A DNA stretch of 64,000 nt from Clostridia bacterium (GTDB taxonomy: Bacteria; Bacillota; Clostridia; UMGS1810), in assembly GCA_045633845.1 (NCBI GenBank), contig JAZQZC010000036.1:2004-66003 (forward strand), written 5' to 3'. Each line of letters opens with the position of its first letter. Position 1 is the stretch's first letter. The notes under the pieces were generated by a model, which saw only the letters and a program-made list of their open reading frames with translations, was not told the origin of the DNA and searched no databases. This document shows, piece after piece, positions 1,552-51,244 of the stretch. Both the position numbers and the translations under genes were made by a program.

Positions 1552-1743
1552 GGTGACAGTGGGGGATGTTCGCATGACAACGGGGACATTCCTCGCAAGA
1601 GGTGACAGTGGGGGATGTTCCTTTGTAAAAGGTGCGTCCCCATCTGTCACCGATTAATTTATTGCCGTCTGTTTGCTTGGGCAACGAGGACACACCCCTT
1701 GCGAGGAATGTCCCCGTTGTCATGTGAACATCCCACTGTCACC
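1552..1743. repeat. Family-1 palindromic repeat, locus 1 (alpha half + beta hairpin + inverted full alpha)
   Basis: Starts GGTGACAGTGGGGGATG and ends CATCCCACTGTCACC. Positions 1602-1743 are the reverse complement of locus 2 (2408-2551). The modules are shared with loci 3-5. Confidence 0.9.
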
Positions 1744-2412: not shown

Positions 2413-2551
2413 CAGTGGGGATGCTTGCATGACAACGGGGACATTCCTCGCAAGAGGTGTGTCCTCGTTGCCCAAGCAAACAGACGGCGATAAATTAATC
2501 AGTGACAGATGGGGACGCACCTTTTACAAAGGAACATCCCCATCTGTCACC
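2408..2551. repeat. Family-1 palindromic repeat, locus 2 (alpha + beta)
   Basis: GGTGACAGTGGGGATGCTTGCATGACAACGGGGACATTCCTCGCAAGAGG...AGTGACAGATGGGGACGCACCTTTTACAAAGGAACATCCCCATCTGTCACC. About 92 percent identical to the inverted copy in locus 1. Confidence 0.9.
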
Positions 2552-5752: not shown

Positions 5753-6904
5753 ATGAAAACACCATTAGAATACGGGAAATTAGCATGTGATGCATATATT
5801 CATAAATTTGAACCGCATATGCTTCCGCCGGTCGGAACTTTGTTTTATCATCAGGGAGTCTGCCTTTCGGGTATGCAAAACATCTATAAGCTATGCGGTG
5901 ATAAAAAATATTTTAATTATATAAAAGATTATGTAGACAGTGTTATCGGCCCAAATGGCGAGATTATCGGTATTAAGCACGAATTAAATACCCCCCAAAC
6001 TGCAGACCTTGCAAAAAGATCTCTCGAAATGCTCGACCACAGACAGCCAATCATTTTGTTCTACAACCTTTACGAAGAAACAAAAGACGAAAAATATATG
6101 AATGCAATCAAAACGGTGGGTGAATCTATGTATTTCTGGCCTGTTAACCGCCATGGTGGCTACTGGCATATGATGATTCAGCACAATCAGATGTGGCTTG
6201 ACGGTGCATATATGGCAGGTCCGCTTTCGTGTATGTATGCAAACCTCACCGGTGACCCAACGCTGAGAGACAGAGCAATTAATCAGATATTCCTTATGGA
6301 TGACCATATGAAGGATGCAAAAACCGGTCTTTATTATCATGGTTGGGACGATTCATACTACGAACCAAAACAACCTTGGGCAGACGAAAAAACAGGACTT
6401 TCAAGTCAGTTCTGGTCAAGAGCCGTTGGCTGGTATGCAGTTGCTATTATGGATGTCCTCGAATTAATTCCTGCAGACCACCCTGCTTGTCCTCGTCTTA
6501 AGCAGATTGAAAAAGACTTGCTTACAAGCCTTGCAAACTTCCAGGACAAAGAGACAGGTATGTGGTTTGAGGTTATCGACCGCATTGACGCGCCTGACAA
6601 CTGGGTTGAAAGCTCGGGTACAAATCTCTTTATATACGCGTATGCAAAAGCAGTGCGTTTGGGTGTTGTATCTAAAGATGAATTTGGCGAAGTTATTGAA
6701 AAAGCATATAAAGGTAGTATCGACTCAACCTATATGGATGAAGATGGCTACCTTGTTATAGATAAAGTATGTGTAGGTACCTGTATTGATGAAGGCACAT
6801 ACGAGCATTACATCAATCGTGCACAAATCAAGAATGACCTCCATGGCGGTGGTGCTTTCCTTCTTATGTGCGCAGAAATGGAACGCTACAGACAAATGAA
6901 ATAG
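5753..6904 (+). CDS. GH105/GH88-type unsaturated glycuronyl (rhamnogalacturonyl) hydrolase
   Basis: Blocks QMWLDGAYMAGP, YYHGWDDS and FWSRAVGWYAVAIMD resemble YteR/YesR-type hydrolases. I moved the start to ATG 5753, because the TTG-extended ORF from 5678 overlaps a hairpin at 5664-5694. Confidence 0.75.
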   Translation: MKTPLEYGKLACDAYIHKFEPHMLPPVGTLFYHQGVCLSGMQNIYKLCGDKKYFNYIKDYVDSVIGPNGEIIGIKHELNTPQTADLAKRSLEMLDHRQPIILFYNLYEETKDEKYMNAIKTVGESMYFWPVNRHGGYWHMMIQHNQMWLDGAYMAGPLSCMYANLTGDPTLRDRAINQIFLMDDHMKDAKTGLYYHGWDDSYYEPKQPWADEKTGLSSQFWSRAVGWYAVAIMDVLELIPADHPACPRLKQIEKDLLTSLANFQDKETGMWFEVIDRIDAPDNWVESSGTNLFIYAYAKAVRLGVVSKDEFGEVIEKAYKGSIDSTYMDEDGYLVIDKVCVGTCIDEGTYEHYINRAQIKNDLHGGGAFLLMCAEMERYRQMK

Positions 6905-6959
6905 GTCAGTAAGTTTGGTTAATATTGACCTGACAACAGTTGAAGGGAGAATTTAAAAA

Positions 6960-7913
6960 ATGGCAAAAAACAAACAAGCAGCCATAAAGCCTGTAGATAA
7001 GCTCAGCTTCAGCTACAGACTCAAATCAGACATTTCTCGCAATTACGCACTGTACATCCTCATTATTCCTGTGATTTTGTACTACTTAATCTTTATGTAC
7101 AAGCCAATGTACGGCGCAGTAATCGCATTCCAGGACTACCGTCCGGTTCAAGGTGTATGGGGAAGTGAGTGGGTAGGCTTACTCCATTACAAACGCTTTT
7201 TCTCAAATCCTGACTTTGTAAGAATTTTCCGTAACACTCTTACAATCAGTATTTCGGGCATTGTCTTTGGTTTTCCTGCACCGATTATTCTCGCTCTTAT
7301 GTTCAACGAACTCAAGAGCCAGAAGTTTAAATCAATTGCACAGACCATTTCATACTTACCGCACTTTATTTCACTGGTTGTAGCCTGCGGTCTTATCAAA
7401 ACCTTTGTTAACGAAGGCGGTCTTATCTACAATATTGTAGTTGCTCTCGGCGGACCCGAAAAATCACTGCTCTCTCGTGCAGAGTGCTTTGTACCAATCT
7501 ATGTACTTTCAGGTATATGGCAGGAAATCGGCTGGGGTTCAATTATTTACCTTGCTGCTCTCTCAGGTATTGACCAGGAGCTTTACGAAGCAGCACGTAT
7601 CGATGGTGCCAACAAATGGAAACAGGTTTGGCACATCACACTTCCGGGCATTATGCCTACAATCATCATTATGCTTATTCTCCGACTCGGTGCGATAATG
7701 GGCGTAGGATACGAAAAGATTATTCTTTTGTACAACAGTCTTATTTACGAAACATCTGACGTTATATCCTCATACGTTTATCGTGTAGGTCTTGGCAGTC
7801 AGCAGTGGTCGTATTCATCGGCAGTTGGTCTGCTCAACTCTTTAATCAACTTCATCATCGTTATGACAACCAACAAGATTTCGGCTAAAGTTTCAGATAC
7901 ATCATTGTGGTAA
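6960..7913 (+). CDS. Sugar ABC transporter permease (LplB-like)
   Basis: Six TM segments and the EAA loop YEAARIDGANKWKQVWHITLPGI. Confidence 0.88.
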   Translation: MAKNKQAAIKPVDKLSFSYRLKSDISRNYALYILIIPVILYYLIFMYKPMYGAVIAFQDYRPVQGVWGSEWVGLLHYKRFFSNPDFVRIFRNTLTISISGIVFGFPAPIILALMFNELKSQKFKSIAQTISYLPHFISLVVACGLIKTFVNEGGLIYNIVVALGGPEKSLLSRAECFVPIYVLSGIWQEIGWGSIIYLAALSGIDQELYEAARIDGANKWKQVWHITLPGIMPTIIIMLILRLGAIMGVGYEKIILLYNSLIYETSDVISSYVYRVGLGSQQWSYSSAVGLLNSLINFIIVMTTNKISAKVSDTSLW

Positions 7914-8973: not shown

Positions 8974-9435
8974 TTATTCCTCAACAACATCCTCCAACAG
9001 ATTATCTCCGTTAATCGCACTTGTTGCAAGCTTGTCACAACGCTCATTTTCGGGGTGACCTGCGTGCCCCTTTACCCATACAAATTCCACATTGTGCCGC
9101 TCAAGCTGAATAACCAGTCTTTTAAACAAATCCACATTTTTTGCTTTTTCGCTTTTGGTTCGGTACCAGTTGTTGCTTTTCCACTTTTCTATCCAGCCCA
9201 TATTTACGGAATCGACAAGATATTTTGAGTCACTTGTCAGCACAACATTGCACGGCTCTTTTAACGTCTCAAGTGCAACTACTGCCGCAAGTATTTCCAT
9301 TCTGTTGTTTGTAGTGCTCAAATAGCCCGCACTCAGCTCTTTTGTTGCTCCGTTGTATTCGAGTATTGCACCATAGCCGCCCTTGCCCGGATTGCCGCTG
9401 CAGGCGCCGTCTGTATATACCTTTACATTTTTCAT
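8974..9435 (-). CDS. rnhA: Ribonuclease HI
   Basis: VYTDGACSGNPGKGGYG, TNNRMEILA, WVKGHAGHPENERCDKLA. Start taken at MKNVKVY, with GGAG 8 nt upstream. Confidence 0.9.
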   Translation of the reverse strand: MKNVKVYTDGACSGNPGKGGYGAILEYNGATKELSAGYLSTTNNRMEILAAVVALETLKEPCNVVLTSDSKYLVDSVNMGWIEKWKSNNWYRTKSEKAKNVDLFKRLVIQLERHNVEFVWVKGHAGHPENERCDKLATSAINGDNLLEDVVEE

Positions 9436-11457: not shown

Positions 11458-11571
11458 AAATTTTACATCCACATTATTTTTAGTTTGTTCACAATTCACT
11501 AATGTTTTTTTAATGTTAAAATGATATACTTGTTAATATAATAAAGCATATTGTGTAAAAGGAGACCAACT

Positions 11572-13350
11572 ATGAAAATTTTAAAGCTTCTTGACGGAAA
11601 AGTAAATTTAAAATTAGGCAAAAAAAGTCTGGAAATCAGCAAAAAAATTCTGGCAATCATAATTGCGGCATTGCTTGTAGTTTTTGTGTTTACATATTCA
11701 TTTTTTACAGGCAGCGACAAAACATCCGCTGAGCTTGTTAACGCCCAGGTTACAAGAGGTGACATTGTAAGCTCTATTGAGGGTACAGGAGTAATTGAGG
11801 CAATTAATCAGTACGAGGTAACCTCTCTTGCAAAAGGTGATATAATTGCCGATTATTTTGAAGAAGGCGACTATGTAGAAAAGGACCAGCTCCTTTACGA
11901 GATGGACAGCTCTTCTGTAGCAAGCACTATTGAGAGGGCGCAGTCAAGTCTTGAAAAAGCGCAGATGAATTACGACCAGGCAACCGAAGATGTTGCCAAC
12001 CTTAATATAAAGGCAGACATTTCGGGTGTTATTACATCACTCAACATTAAAAAGGGCGACCAGGTAGGCAACAATACAGTTGTTGCTGAGATTATAGACA
12101 GAAGTACAATGCTGCTCCGTATTCCATTTAATGCAAACGATGCACAAAAGCTTTGGGTGGGGCAGAGTGCTACAGTAAACTTAGAGAGCTCATTTACTTC
12201 GGTAAACGGCAAGGTTTCAAGAATTGCAACAGGCTCAACCATCAACTCCTATGGTGTTGCAGTAACAAACGTTGAGCTTGAGGTACCTAACCCCGGCTCC
12301 ATTAAGCCAGGTGACAAGGCTACTGTTGTAGCAGGAGATTGTGCTTGCAACGACGCAGGTGAATTTGAATATAAAAATGAGTCTACAATCACCGCAAAGG
12401 TGTCGGGCAAGGTTACGGCTTTAAATTACCACGAGGGTGACAAAATTTCGCAAGGCGCAGTAATTGCGCGTCTGGAGAGTGACAGCGTAACATTAAGCGC
12501 ACGCTCAAACAGGCTTTCGCTCAATGATGCGGTAAGCTCACTCAAGGATGCGCAGGAAACTCTTGACGATTACAGAATAACGGCGCCTATTTCGGGCAAG
12601 GTTATAGAAAAAACTGCAAAAGCAGGCGAAAAGCTTGACACAAACTCATCCTCAACAATGGCAATCATTGCAGACCTTTCATCACTTATATTTGAAATGA
12701 GCATTGATGAGCTTGATATAAGCAAAATCAAAGTGGGTCAGGAGGTTCAGATAACTGCCGATGCAATAGAAAATACCACTTTTACAGGAACTGTAACAAG
12801 TGTAAGCATAGTAGGAACTTCGACTCAGGGTGTTACAAGCTATCCTGTAAAGGTTACTATACAAGACGGCGAGGACAGCGGACTTATACCGGGAATGAAC
12901 GTAACCGGTAATATTATAGTTGAATCGGTAGAGGACGTACTCCGCGTACCTGTTTCGGCAGTAAGAAGAGGCAACTTTGTTATAGTTAAGGATGACGGAA
13001 CAGTTGACCAAGCAAATTACGATGACGGAACAGTTGACGAAGCAAATTACGATGACGGAGCAAAGCTTGACGATGCAGACAAACAGGCAGCACGCCTTGA
13101 AAATATGAAAAAACAGCTTGACATACCTGACGGATATACAGTTGTTCAGGTAGAAACAGGCTTAAGTAATAATACATTTATCGAAATTAAGAGCGGACTT
13201 TCCGAGGGGCAGACAGTTTTACTTCCCGATACCACCGAATCAGCCGCAGCAACTCAGCAAGGTATGATGGGCGGTATGAGAGGAATGCCCGGTGGAATGG
13301 GCGGTATGCCTTCAGGCGGAGGAATGCCCAGTGGCGGTATGCGCCAATAA
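11572..13350 (+). CDS. HlyD/MacA-type efflux adaptor (membrane-fusion protein)
   Basis: N-terminal TM segment, coiled-coil and lipoyl/beta-barrel blocks (ITAPISGKVIEK), directly upstream of MacB-type ATPase and FtsX permease genes. ATG 11572 follows AAGGAG. The C-terminus carries a Gly-Met-rich tail. Confidence 0.85.
   Translation: MKILKLLDGKVNLKLGKKSLEISKKILAIIIAALLVVFVFTYSFFTGSDKTSAELVNAQVTRGDIVSSIEGTGVIEAINQYEVTSLAKGDIIADYFEEGDYVEKDQLLYEMDSSSVASTIERAQSSLEKAQMNYDQATEDVANLNIKADISGVITSLNIKKGDQVGNNTVVAEIIDRSTMLLRIPFNANDAQKLWVGQSATVNLESSFTSVNGKVSRIATGSTINSYGVAVTNVELEVPNPGSIKPGDKATVVAGDCACNDAGEFEYKNESTITAKVSGKVTALNYHEGDKISQGAVIARLESDSVTLSARSNRLSLNDAVSSLKDAQETLDDYRITAPISGKVIEKTAKAGEKLDTNSSSTMAIIADLSSLIFEMSIDELDISKIKVGQEVQITADAIENTTFTGTVTSVSIVGTSTQGVTSYPVKVTIQDGEDSGLIPGMNVTGNIIVESVEDVLRVPVSAVRRGNFVIVKDDGTVDQANYDDGTVDEANYDDGAKLDDADKQAARLENMKKQLDIPDGYTVVQVETGLSNNTFIEIKSGLSEGQTVLLPDTTESAAATQQGMMGGMRGMPGGMGGMPSGGGMPSGGMRQ
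12991..13059 (+). repeat. In-frame 30-bp tandem duplication inside the adaptor gene
   Basis: GATGACGGAACAGTTGACCAAGCAAATTAC is repeated at 13021 with one mismatch, plus 9 nt of a third unit. It encodes DDGTVDQANY DDGTVDEANY DDG. Confidence 0.9.
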
Positions 13351-31207: not shown

Positions 31208-31480
31208 GGTGACAGAGTGATAAGAGGGGTGACAGTGGGGAAGTTCCTTTGCAAAAGGTGCGTCCCCATCTGTCACAGGTTAGTGTTTGCCATATGTTCG
31301 CACAACAAGCGAGGACACACCTCTTACGAGGAATGTCCCCGTTGTCATGCGAACATCCCCATTTGTCACAGTTTAGTGTTTGCCATATGTTCGCACAACA
31401 AGCGAGGACACACCTCTTACGAGGAATGTCCCCGTTGTCATGCGAACATCCCCATTTGTCAAAACATCCCCGTTTGTCAC
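31208..31480. repeat. Family-1 palindromic repeat, locus 3 (beta hairpin + two tandem 93-bp inverted alpha units + terminal motif)
   Basis: GGTGACAGTGGGGAAGTTCCTTTGCAAAAGGTGCGTCCCCATCTGTCAC, then 31277-31369 and 31370-31462 almost identical. Confidence 0.9.
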
Positions 31481-45495: not shown

Positions 45496-45538
45496 TTTTT
45501 TCGGGACGTCCAGGAGGCCGTCCCCTACATATATTGCA

Positions 45539-45717
45539 GGTGACAGGGGGATGTTCGCATGACAACGGGGACATTCCTCGCAAGAGGTGCATAGGTGACA
45601 GTGGGGAAGTTCCTTTGCAAAAGGTGCGTCCCCATCTGTCACCGATTAATTTTTTGCCATTTGTTCGCACAACAAACGGGGACGCACCTTCTGCGAAGGA
45701 ACTTCCCCCACTGTCCC
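45539..45717. repeat. Family-1 palindromic repeat, locus 4 (alpha half + beta hairpin + linker + beta variant)
   Basis: GGTGACAGGGGGATGTTCGCATGACAACGGGGACATTCCTCGCAAGAGG...GGTGACAGTGGGGAAGTTCCTTTGCAAAAGGTGCGTCCCCATCTGTCACC...ACGGGGACGCACCTTCTGCGAAGGAACTTCCCCCACTGTC. It ends at the gatD stop codon. Confidence 0.9.
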
Positions 45718-50157: not shown

Positions 50158-50749
50158 TTATGTAAGATTTTTTAATGCAGATTGTCAGGGCAGAAACATT
50201 TCGTTTTATATCAATGACGATATGGGTGCCGAAAATATTGAGTTTGGCAGCTTTAGCAGATACATACAAATAAACGGCAATCAGGCAACCTTTGGTATGT
50301 CCTGCCTCGATTGCAAAATAGGTGACTGCGGCACCCTCACTCTTAACTTTGACAGCTCCTCCGTTTATACTGTTGCGGCAGTGTGCATAGGCGGAGAGGT
50401 TTGCCTTTACGGCATAAGAGAAATGTTTGGCGAGCCCAACCGCGCAAGCGCAAACTTAAGGGTGTGCAACTTAAGCCCCGATATATCGGAGGATGATTTG
50501 TATGCAAACCGATACAAAATAATAGGGGATATAGACTATCTTGAAGTAAGCAAGTATATCAAAATGATTCCCGATACATACGACTTTACAATAAAAGACG
50601 ATAAGGAAATTAAATTCAACATAGGCAAGCAGACGCTCAAAAACGGAAAGTACAATACATTTTATATTATAGGCAAGCTCAAAGCAAAGCCCGAAATGAG
50701 ATGCATTGTATCAACAGATGCAATGAGCTACGAGGGCGACGCACTGTAA
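50150..50749 (+). CDS. DUF4397-like protein
   Basis: Two repeats of the pattern hRhhN.sPD...h.hY.N......h.Y...S.Yh (VRFFNADCQGRNISFYIND; LRVCNLSPDISEDDLYANRY). Its start overlaps the upstream stop by 8 nt. Confidence 0.45.
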   Translation: MNNYVRFFNADCQGRNISFYINDDMGAENIEFGSFSRYIQINGNQATFGMSCLDCKIGDCGTLTLNFDSSSVYTVAAVCIGGEVCLYGIREMFGEPNRASANLRVCNLSPDISEDDLYANRYKIIGDIDYLEVSKYIKMIPDTYDFTIKDDKEIKFNIGKQTLKNGKYNTFYIIGKLKAKPEMRCIVSTDAMSYEGDAL

Positions 50750-50776
50750 TTTAAAATATGCCAAACGGCAATGCTC

Positions 50777-51050
50777 GTGACAGTTGGGGATGTTCGCATG
50801 ACAACGGGGACATTGCTCGCAAGAGGTGTGTCCTCGCTTGTTGTGCGAACAGATAAAAACTAACCAGCGACAGACGGGGACGCACCTTTTGCAAAGGAAT
50901 ATCCCCATTTGTCACTTTTGCACAAAAGAGCTCGGTGGGGGATATTCGTCCGCAGGACGTGTGTCCCCGCATCCGGGCGACCGCAAGTGACAGTAGACAG
51001 ACGGGGACGCACCTTTTGCAAAGGAACATCCCCGTCTGTCTACTGTCACC
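50777..51050. repeat. Family-1 palindromic repeat, locus 5 (alpha + beta + degenerate beta + extended beta)
   Basis: GTGACAGTTGGGGATGTTCGCATGACAACGGGGACATTGCTCGCAAGAGG... ending with a perfect 21-bp stem GTGACAGTAGACAGACGGGGA / TCCCCGTCTGTCTACTGTCAC. Confidence 0.9.
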
Positions 51051-51079
51051 CAAAAATATCAAAAAGTTTAAAAAAGGTA

Positions 51080-51108
51080 TTGACAAACCAAATTTCGGGT
51101 GATATAAT
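51080..51108 (+). promoter_or_regulatory. Sigma-A promoter of the infC-rpmI-rplT operon
   Basis: TTGACA (51080-51085), a 17-nt spacer with an extended TG, and TATAAT (51103-51108). Confidence 0.7.
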
Positions 51109-51111
51109 ACT

Positions 51112-51220
51112 CAAGGAAAGTAAAGCAGAAGTCCACTTCTCACCTGCGGATTTGGTATGTCCGTATGGTTAATACATTTGTTTTATGTGTATAAGTGGGT
51201 GGATTTCGCCCACTTTTTTT
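51112..51220 (+). promoter_or_regulatory. Ribosomal protein L20 leader (attenuator) of the IF3 operon
   Basis: About 110-nt structured leader between the promoter and infC, ending in the terminator AAGTGGG-tggatttcg-CCCACTT plus TTTTTT (51193-51220). This arrangement is typical of the Firmicute L20 leader. Confidence 0.6.
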
Positions 51221-51244
51221 AATTTATTTTGGAGGTGCTTTATC

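Follow-up and report, generated by a model that had tools for sequence, protein, structure and literature searches.

The beta hairpins are short imperfect palindromes scattered over a 64,000-nucleotide (nt) stretch of a Clostridia bacterium contig (JAZQZC010000036.1, positions 2,004 to 66,003; the whole stretch is referred to as the window). They are probably a mobile, non-coding family of the TIRtron/TIRYT type, similar to repetitive extragenic palindromes (REPs), in which the folded hairpin of single-stranded DNA (ssDNA) would be under selection and would be read by a resident Y1 enzyme. A preliminary description of the window had proposed that the hairpin itself is the unit under selection, and this was supported: in a sample of 160 units, each inner-stem position was Watson–Crick paired in 93–100% of the copies, and broken stems were rare. 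Each unit consists of variable but complementary outer arms (GACA-R-NN / NN-Y-TGTC), a G/C clamp conserved in sequence (GGGGA/TCCCC), a conserved irregular segment (C-R-C-A opposite A-A-Y-N), and an apical stem-loop, whose stem is called the inner stem below and which can have any sequence provided that the pairing holds.

Inner-stem pairing across the genome

The genome (labeled G000) comprised 1.48 Mb in 54 contigs, with a GC content of 39.7% and a completeness of 97.7%. It was scanned for units using the anchors G(G/A)GGAC(G/A)C(A/G) and NA(C/T)N-TCC(C/T)C with 10–17 free bases between them, and inner pairing was not required. The scan identified 160 units in 77 clusters. A stricter pattern gave 92 matches, compared with none for the reversed pattern used as a control, and thus the abundance of the hairpins is not due to chance.

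At least seven paired sequences were observed in the inner stem: CCTTT/AAAGG (about 70 copies), CCTC/GAGG (about 45), CGTGC/GCACG (about 25), CCTTC/GAAGG (6 copies, 5 of which were fully paired), and the rare CCTT/AAGG, CGTCC/GGACG, and CGTGCC/GGCGCG, with a few copies or a single copy each. Counted by position, Watson–Crick pairs were found in 159 of 160 units at position 1, in all 160 at position 2 (C-G in 130 and G-C in 30), in 154 at position 3, in 154 at position 4 (T-A in 81, C-G in 47, and G-C in 26), and in 78 of 84 at position 5 (T-A in 70 and C-G in 8). Unpaired variants, which would have refuted the preliminary description had they been as common as paired ones, were far outnumbered: 5 of the 160 copies had a true mismatch, each a singleton, and paired variants had 1–44 copies and the major types 6–44. 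About 10 copies had a G.T wobble and resembled intermediates; CCTTT..GAAGG, for instance, stands midway from CCTTT/AAAGG to CCTTC/GAAGG. The loops varied freely (TGC in 44, TTC in 10, and TAC in 8, with TTT, TTA, TTGC, and others), and their variability per site was approximately six times that of the stems.

The inner-stem forms reported earlier for the window were located, namely CGTCC-GCA-GGACG at 50947–50959, CCTTC-TGC-GAAGG at 45687–45699, CCTTT-TGC-AAAGG or its reverse complement at loci 3–5, and CCTTT-TAC-AAAGG at loci 1–2 (the loci are the places in the window where the hairpins occur; Table 1), all by direct reading of the sequence. A 5-bp stem with a 3-nt loop, said to be present in every case, was confirmed for the beta units of the window; genome-wide, it did not hold, as 4-bp stems with 4-nt loops (CCTC-TTGC-GAGG) and 5-bp stems with 2-nt loops (CGTGC-AA-GCACG) also exist.

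The irregular segment was conserved as well. Its asymmetric form CRCA/AAYN was kept in 89 of 91 units collected with anchors that left the segment free, and one pair inside the supposed internal loop covaried among the 160 units (G-C in 101 and A-T in 56, with 3 exceptions).

Covariation across species and in the outer arms

The same anchors were applied to one genome per species, and the figures for other genomes refer to the matches listed. At least 67 units with the CACA/AATG form were found in Syntrophomonadaceae, Desulfotomaculum, Peptococcaceae, Dethiobacter, and other metagenome-assembled genomes (MAGs) of Bacillota. Among the matches listed from other Bacillota classes, the core GGGGACACA-stem/loop-AATGTCCCC enclosed at least 48 distinct stem-loops at the apex (CCTCC-TTC-GGAGG, CCCC-TTC-GGGG, and CCTGC-TTC-GCAGG, among others), and four or more consecutive Watson–Crick pairs were present in 54 of the 67 units. 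Approximately 50 chance matches of the remaining anchor combinations, which came from Actinomycetes and further groups, showed no pairing in most cases, with zero or one paired position. Asymmetry of the CRCA/AAYN type also persisted across the Bacillota classes.

Covariation was quantified in a gap-free alignment of 45 distinct 31-nt cores from G000 and the other genomes and compared with 500 shuffles. Paired cells amounted to 93.1% (85.7 ± 0.6 when shuffled), double-sided changes to 61 (22.5 ± 6.2), and the covariation score to 0.272 (0.122). None of the 500 shuffles reached the observed values of paired cells, double changes, or covariation, and slid registers paired at 57.6% or less. The direction of the covariation is unambiguous, although the copies are related by copying.

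In a Desulfotomaculum sp. MAG (L017 7780–8000 and L038 6680–6810), several left halves (GGGGACACACCTCC) were followed by several right halves (GGAATGTCCCC), which looks as if units had been inserted repeatedly into the loops of earlier units. A 13-nt string, TCGTCAGCGGATA, was repeated ahead of two units in L038.

The outer arms also covaried, as had been claimed from two pairs in the window. These pairs, GACAGATGGGGA/TCCCCATCTGTC at 2504–2548 and GACAGACGGGGA/TCCCCGTCTGTC at 50996–51040, were both present, and their arms GACAGAT/ATCTGTC and GACAGAC/GTCTGTC belong to a series in which the base beside the GGGGA block forms all four Watson–Crick pairs (AAAT/ATTT, AAAC/GTTT, AAAG/CTTT, and AAAA/TTTT). 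The commonest form of the outer arms had a conserved 1-nt bulge (GTGACAG-A-TGGGGGA / TCCCCCA-CTGTCAC), and GAGGA stood opposite TCCCC in approximately 40% of the units. Perfect outer stems ranged from 5 bp to at least 21 bp, and a stem of at least 21 bp occurred twice in the genome. The perfect 21-bp stem pointed out in locus 5, GTGACAGTAGACAGACGGGGA / TCCCCGTCTGTCTACTGTCAC, was found as described, and it is the upper end of this distribution and not a special class. Its hairpin folded as predicted with both DNA parameters (−28.7/−31.1 kcal/mol) and RNA parameters (−46.7/−55.6 kcal/mol), with z-scores of −9.6 to −11.2, and none of 200 shuffles folded equally well.

Two copies in the congener G004 were orthologous to copies in G000. 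In one, the 31-nt core was identical and the neighboring spacer had diverged. In the other (G000:C48, approximately 6900–6990; G004:C15, approximately 11546–11600), the arms were AAAT/ATTT in G000 and AAAC/GTTT in G004. As G000 retains a left-over left half-unit there, this arm change is a nested replacement by another copy and not two point mutations, which limits the claim of covariation.

Such a replacement is what would be expected if the fold were not selected at all, and if a few palindromic masters had been amplified, with complementarity kept or restored by mutational processes such as template switching or gene conversion. Most copies do belong to a few nearly identical types. As they are related by copying in a recent amplification, the copy counts are inflated and do not represent independent events, and the independent compensatory events within G000 are few, roughly 5–8. 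Template switching would, however, have perfected the irregular segment, which stayed asymmetric within the genome and across Bacillota classes. The excess variability of the loops over the stems, the many apical stem-loops of distant genomes, mostly paired, and the broken stems, which were never multi-copy, also oppose this explanation, and we consider it very unlikely.

Palindromes could also be kept as double-stranded binding sites for a dimeric host protein, such as a nucleoid protein, gyrase, or a regulator. The E. coli elements called BIMEs bind IHF and gyrase, and the GGGGA/TCCCC blocks are symmetric and conserved in sequence, as such a site would be. Yet a dimer constrains sequence and not complementarity, and here the apical stem and the outer arms change freely and still pair, the conserved irregular segment is not symmetric, and the sister species lacks the sites at its orthologous loci. 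This explanation is hardly credible for the beta hairpins.

Genomic placement and turnover

None of the 77 clusters lay inside a real open reading frame (ORF), and the units are strictly intergenic. A naive ORF call had placed 69 of the 160 units inside spurious ORFs, which gene callers may annotate as hypothetical proteins. Convergent gaps were somewhat over-represented (19 of 65 clusters compared with 16% of the background gaps). No orientation bias relative to transcription was detected in tandem gene contexts (36 units co-oriented and 42 anti-oriented). One cluster was located between a stop codon and the ribosome-binding site of the next gene and hence inside a transcript.

The strict pattern, found 92 times in G000, occurred 4 times in G004 and in none of 39 other relatives. 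Loci 4 and 5 of the window and eight consecutive clusters of contig C26 were absent from the syntenic sites of G004, where the flanking genes abut. Units missing at orthologous sites of the sister species represent insertions or deletions, and not fixed regulatory sites. At five junctions read against empty G004 sites, no target-site duplication was visible; the clusters are composite, and these were not isolated single-event junctions. At G000:C26:33037–33164 (L189 18036–18163), between convergent genes, a nested hairpin cluster occupies the place where G004 (C1:19348–19422) has an ordinary bidirectional terminator.

Presence or absence between species is also a property of ordinary miniature inverted-repeat transposable elements (MITEs), which would be moved by a DDE transposase reading double-stranded termini (GTGACAG..GGGGA), with the hairpin potential as a by-product. 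The composite units of approximately 150 bp with inverted termini TGACA-NNN-GGGGAWGTT are compatible with this origin. Inverted termini thus exist, yet they were not accompanied by target-site duplication at the five empty-site junctions, the apical stem is non-terminal and nevertheless keeps its pairing through sequence change, and the conserved asymmetry of the irregular segment is unexpected for double-stranded terminal repeats. No transposase gene bounded by these termini turned up, although no systematic search was made. We regard a MITE origin as quite improbable.

Strand asymmetry and folding as DNA or RNA

Strand A of a unit reads GGGGAC(G/A)CA...AA(C/T)N-TCCCC, and strand B, its complement, reads GGGGA(T/A)GTT...TGCGTCCCC. 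In the irregular segment, the A.C and A.A oppositions of strand A correspond to T.G wobbles and one T.T on strand B, where the helix is almost continuous and the loops are mostly GCA, GAA, or GTA (GNA) or GCAA or GTAA (GNRA). Of 125 distinct units, 121 folded better as strand B when RNA parameters were used, and 120 did so when DNA parameters were used. The wobbles of the clamp, the irregular segment, and the outer arms were on strand B, and those of the inner stem (T.G) were on strand A (6 types versus 1). As the inner-stem wobbles conflict with the overall folding of strand B, no active strand is claimed with confidence; that strand B is the active one is our hypothesis from the sequence pattern.

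The better folding of strand B, which involves G.U pairs, and its GNA or GNRA loops would also suit a hairpin selected as RNA, acting in transcripts as a 3′-end stabilizer, an RNase barrier, or a terminator, with the pairing kept for host function. Such roles have been reported for some E. coli REPs. The units lie between genes, often at 3′ ends and in convergent gaps, some lie within operons and must therefore be transcribed, and one cluster stands where the sister species has a terminator. However, the orientation counts indicate that the better-folding strand is transcribed no more often than the other, and the orthologous gaps of G004 work without the repeats. A function as an intrinsic terminator was rejected because only a minority of the hairpins were followed by a run of at least four T (15% for strand A and 26% for strand B, compared with 12% in the background), 74–85% of the units having none, and the orientation was unbiased. 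Searches of Rfam 15 with gathering thresholds and at E ≤ 10 covered the locus, the entire window, and 17 loci of other genomes, and no family matched the hairpins; the only hits were to generic microRNA-precursor models far under their thresholds, and the scans of the window and of the 17 loci gave none. Selection as RNA would also leave unexplained the lineage-specific burst (92, 4, and 0 matches) and the motif shared with the flanks of a Y1 gene (see below). It is unlikely in our view, and we favor ssDNA over RNA as the folded molecule.

The candidate Y1 enzyme and its flanking repeats

The genome has three Y1 (HUH) loci, and the candidate enzyme of the ssDNA reading is the product of a single-copy gene of 248 amino acids (aa) (Table 1). 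The best NCBIfam match of the protein was REP_Tyr_transpos with 64.6 bits, which is below the cut-off of 80, and an HUH motif (NHVHLL) and a tyrosine motif (YIHQNP) are visible by eye. The gene is flanked upstream and just downstream by inverted GACAAAA-GGGGACGG-TTTTGTC repeats; the flank unit can also be read as GACAAAA-GGGGACGGTCC-TTTTTTGTCAAC, with inverted copies on both sides. Inverted AAAW-GGGGACG...TTTTGTCAAC units were present on both sides of the Y1 gene in G000, in G004 (95% ortholog), and in G035, a member of another family (60%). The flank motif fits the GGGGWS part of the motif GGGGWSAS and has G instead of A at position 7.

The flanks share with the dispersed hairpins the arms GACAAA/TTTGTC and the string GGGGACG-NN-CCTTTT. 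The 160 dispersed hairpins have the arms and a GGGGAC-N3-CC core in common with them, but the two are not identical. There were 15 GGGGACGGTCC units in the genome, several of which were inside hairpin clusters. Within the genus, a close ortholog of the 248-aa gene was found only in G000 and G004, the hairpins were likewise found only there, and four congeners had neither. Five hairpin-bearing genomes of other classes had 2–8 homologues of the protein each, and at approximately 20 of the 30 homologue loci examined there, hairpins with GGGGACGGTTC between complementary arms were located nearby, and in about half of these cases they stood on either side of the gene. The arms of these hairpins differed between paralogues.

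From this co-occurrence, the 248-aa enzyme may bind, cleave, or move the hairpins. In the mechanism that we propose, a Y1 (HUH) tyrosine transposase similar to RAYT/TIRYT enzymes would recognize the element as a folded single DNA strand, and the architecture of the units is the one expected from such recognition. The clamp and the irregularities would be the features read by the protein, and the only role of the apical stem would be to maintain the fold. A copy whose pairing is lost would no longer be multiplied, which would account for broken variants occurring as singletons and paired ones in multiple copies.

In addition to the small number of independent compensatory events, several observations weigh against this proposal. 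Homologues of the Y1 gene are present in 12 of 39 hairpin-free relatives, and hence the gene is not sufficient. At the gene flanks, GGGGACGG is in the loop, whereas in the dispersed units GGGGACRC is paired to TCCCC. Dispersed GGGGACACA hairpins directly flanking a Y1 gene were not seen at the homologue loci of the distant genomes. The C-terminal helix-turn-helix (Bac_DnaA_C-like domain) expected for subclass 2.1 (see below) had no Pfam match in the C-terminal extension of approximately 100 aa, even at E ≤ 10; a PDB sequence search with this extension gave no relative. Finally, a mechanism based on lagging-strand ssDNA might give an orientation bias, and none was found relative to replication (37:43, with the gene strand as a proxy).

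Other Y1 genes were considered. A 163-aa Y1 gene was rejected as the partner because it is absent from the hairpin-bearing G004, is present in the hairpin-free G002, and lacks flanking repeats. A gene of the TnpA-IS200 type (approximately 150 aa with a high Pfam score) was not found in G000. A second REP-like family with a 5′ GTAG tag, GTAGGGGACGGCCTCCNGGACGTCCC, had 8 copies (window 45503–45528 on the minus strand, and contigs C3, C7, C10, and C45 of G000), and two inverted copies of it were located inside the degenerate 163-aa-type gene listed in Table 1 (G000:C45:41368–41564). The genome may hold two REP/Y1 systems, judging from these repeats.

Comparison with known systems

RAYT-like genes termed TIRYTs, with flanking inverted repeats that share GGGGWSAS, were described together with these repeats as TIRtrons, and some TIRtron repeats are dispersed as singles, dimers, or clusters (Di Nocera, De Gregorio, and Rocco 2013, PMC3733652). 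The present system resembles them in its single-copy RAYT-like Y1 gene with inverted GGGG-W-S-A-S-like flanks (GGGGACGG; GGGGACAC / GGGGACGC in the dispersed units) and in repeats scattered between genes as singles, dimers, and clusters. It differs in that the published examples considered here come from Proteobacteria and Acidobacteria (for example, S. maltophilia and K. versatilis) and the present host is Gram-positive. Here, both the flanking and the dispersed repeats form hairpins whose arms covary. The dispersed units also have an additional apical stem-loop, and their copy number in this 1.5-Mb genome is at least 160. Position 7 of the motif is G and not A in the beta units and the gene flanks. 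By these sequence features, the beta-hairpin family fits the known TIRtron/TIRYT class as a new example in a Gram-positive host.

Likeness to REP/BIME and REPIN-RAYT systems (Bertels and Rainey 2011, PMC3116915; Ton-Hoang et al. 2012, PMC3333891; Messing et al. 2012, PMC3479197) lies in the short, imperfect, highly repeated extragenic palindromes in mosaic clusters, their lineage specificity, compensatory changes that keep the pairing, and a single-copy cognate Y1 transposase gene flanked by repeats. The argument from covariation was made for REPINs by Bertels and Rainey. The alpha (see below) and beta units differ from REPs in having GACAR arms and a GGGGA clamp and no GTAG (or CGTC) tag. Further differences are the Gram-positive, anaerobic host, the C-terminal extension of the enzyme, and the lack of identity between the dispersed repeats and those at the gene.

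The subterminal hairpins of the IS200/IS605 insertion sequences (IS608 and ISDra2) are imperfect, their irregularities are conserved, and one ssDNA strand is read by a Y1 HUH enzyme. The beta units are similarly imperfect with conserved irregularities, and, as with these insertion sequences, no target-site duplication was seen, but they are not the ends of an autonomous insertion sequence. MITEs that fold as long hairpins (Correia/NEMIS, RUP, and ERIC) duplicate their target, which is TA in several cases, and rely on DDE transposases. The beta units share with them the non-coding, intergenic nature, the inverted termini, and the presence or absence between strains, and differ from them in that no duplication was seen and the pairing reaches non-terminal parts. 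A full-text literature search with the motif strings retrieved unrelated primers only.

Most TIRYT proteins were assigned to subclass 2.1 of TnpA-REP, and no REP-like secondary structure was reported beside their genes (Quentin et al. 2018, PMC6006769). Tentatively, and with some doubt, the GGGGA-clamp hairpin could be the DNA substrate that has long been missing for the Y1 enzymes of subclass 2.1 (TIRYTs) throughout Bacillota. The conserved features of such a substrate would be a wobble or mismatch geometry that allows a near-continuous helix on just one of the strands, a loop of the GNA/GNRA type on this strand, and an apical stem that covaries freely. The "TIRs" flanking these genes are themselves hairpins that show GGGGACGGTYC in the loop, and the nested half-unit arrays of locus 5 and of the Desulfotomaculum MAG (L017) would record self-targeted insertion into existing hairpins.

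Hairpins of the window and other repeats

Locus 5 (window 50777–51049) lies between a 199-aa gene, whose stop codon is at 50749, and the promoter and L20-type leader of infC. It consists of a half-unit, GTGACAGTTGGGGATG, an "alpha" hairpin, and three hairpins sharing one architecture (Table 1). Half-units similar to GTGACAGTTGGGGATG also open clusters elsewhere in the genome. The alpha hairpin folded with −18.4 kcal/mol as DNA and −36.2 kcal/mol as RNA (z of about −5), and its type of inner stem-loop, CCTC-TTGC-GAGG, had 34 copies in the genome. The outer arms of beta hairpin 1, GACAGAC and ATTTGTC, pair imperfectly, with one A.C mismatch and one G.T wobble. Hairpin 2 has the sole genome copy of the inner stem CGTCC/GGACG. 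Beta hairpin 3, which contains the 21-bp stem, has a 4 × 4 internal loop (CGCA/AACA) and doubled arms (GTGACAG-TA-GACAGAC).

Table 1. Locations of the hairpin units in the window and of related features elsewhere in the genome
Feature	Location	Strand	Remarks
Terminal half-unit GTGACAGTTGGGGATG, locus 5	50777..50792	+	GACAG arm and GGGGA block, partnerless; opens the cluster
Alpha hairpin GTTCGCATGACAACGGGGACATTGCTC-GCAA-GAGGTGTGTCCTCGCTTGTTGTGCGAAC, locus 5	50792..50850	+	beta plan GGGGA/4 nt/stem-loop/4 nt/TCC(T/C)C, here in the opposite orientation
Beta hairpin 1, locus 5	50869..50913	+	GACAGAC-GGGGA-CGCA-CCTTT-TGC-AAAGG-AATA-TCCCC-ATTTGTC; sequence read and folding
Hairpin 2, locus 5	50938..50968	-	GGGGA-CACA-CGTCC-TGC-GGACG-AATA-TCCCC on the minus strand; GACAG arms absent
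Beta hairpin 3, locus 5	50987..51049	+	outer stem 50987-51007 / 51029-51049; inner stem CCTTT/AAAGG; loop TGC
Beta unit, locus 4	45678..45708	+	compensated inner stem CCTTC-TGC-GAAGG; sequence read and pattern scan
Beta unit, locus 4	45603..45633	-	CCTTT-TGC-AAAGG; sequence read and pattern scan
Beta unit, locus 3	31237..31267	-	sequence read and pattern scan
Beta unit, locus 2	2511..2541	+	loop TAC; perfect arms GTGACAGAT/ATCTGTCAC; sequence read and pattern scan
Beta unit, locus 1	1611..1641	-	loop TAC on the minus strand; sequence read and pattern scan
248-aa Y1 gene	G000:C6:3894-4640		single copy; Pfam Y1_Tnp 59.9 bits (cut-off 23)
Degenerate copy of 163-aa-type Y1 gene	G000:C45:41365-41751
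24-nt unit arrays	G000:C21:52833-52900, C44:4086-4190, C31:~9110-9143, C18:33240-33280		unit GGGGACGGTCCTTTTTTGTCAAYT

The 24-nt unit of the tandem arrays is the inverted-repeat unit that flanks the 248-aa Y1 gene, and the arrays often abut hairpin clusters. A further short family, CCGTTGGGGACGGAGCTGTTTTT, had at least 8 copies on several contigs (for example, C1:9971, C22, C26, and C48:6781–6805) and resembles a small hairpin with a T-run behind it. In the window, the element similar to an L20 leader (51117–51227, upstream of infC) scored 57.6 bits against an Rfam gathering score of 58.7, and its promoter (−35 TTGACA and −10 TATAAT) stands directly behind the repeat cluster of locus 5. Spurious ORFs of 53–111 aa arise from this cluster (50751–51086 on the minus strand and neighboring frames).

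Implications

Assemblies of MAGs break at repeats of this kind, which also give rise to spurious ORFs (one of 111 aa covers locus 5) and should be masked when gut Clostridia are annotated. REP-like repeats and domesticated Y1 transposases have been well studied in Proteobacteria and hardly in Gram-positive anaerobes. With at least 160 units, several types of compensated stem, empty sites in a sister species, and a single candidate enzyme, the G000 data set makes the recognition rules of TIRYT-type enzymes testable directly using oligonucleotides.

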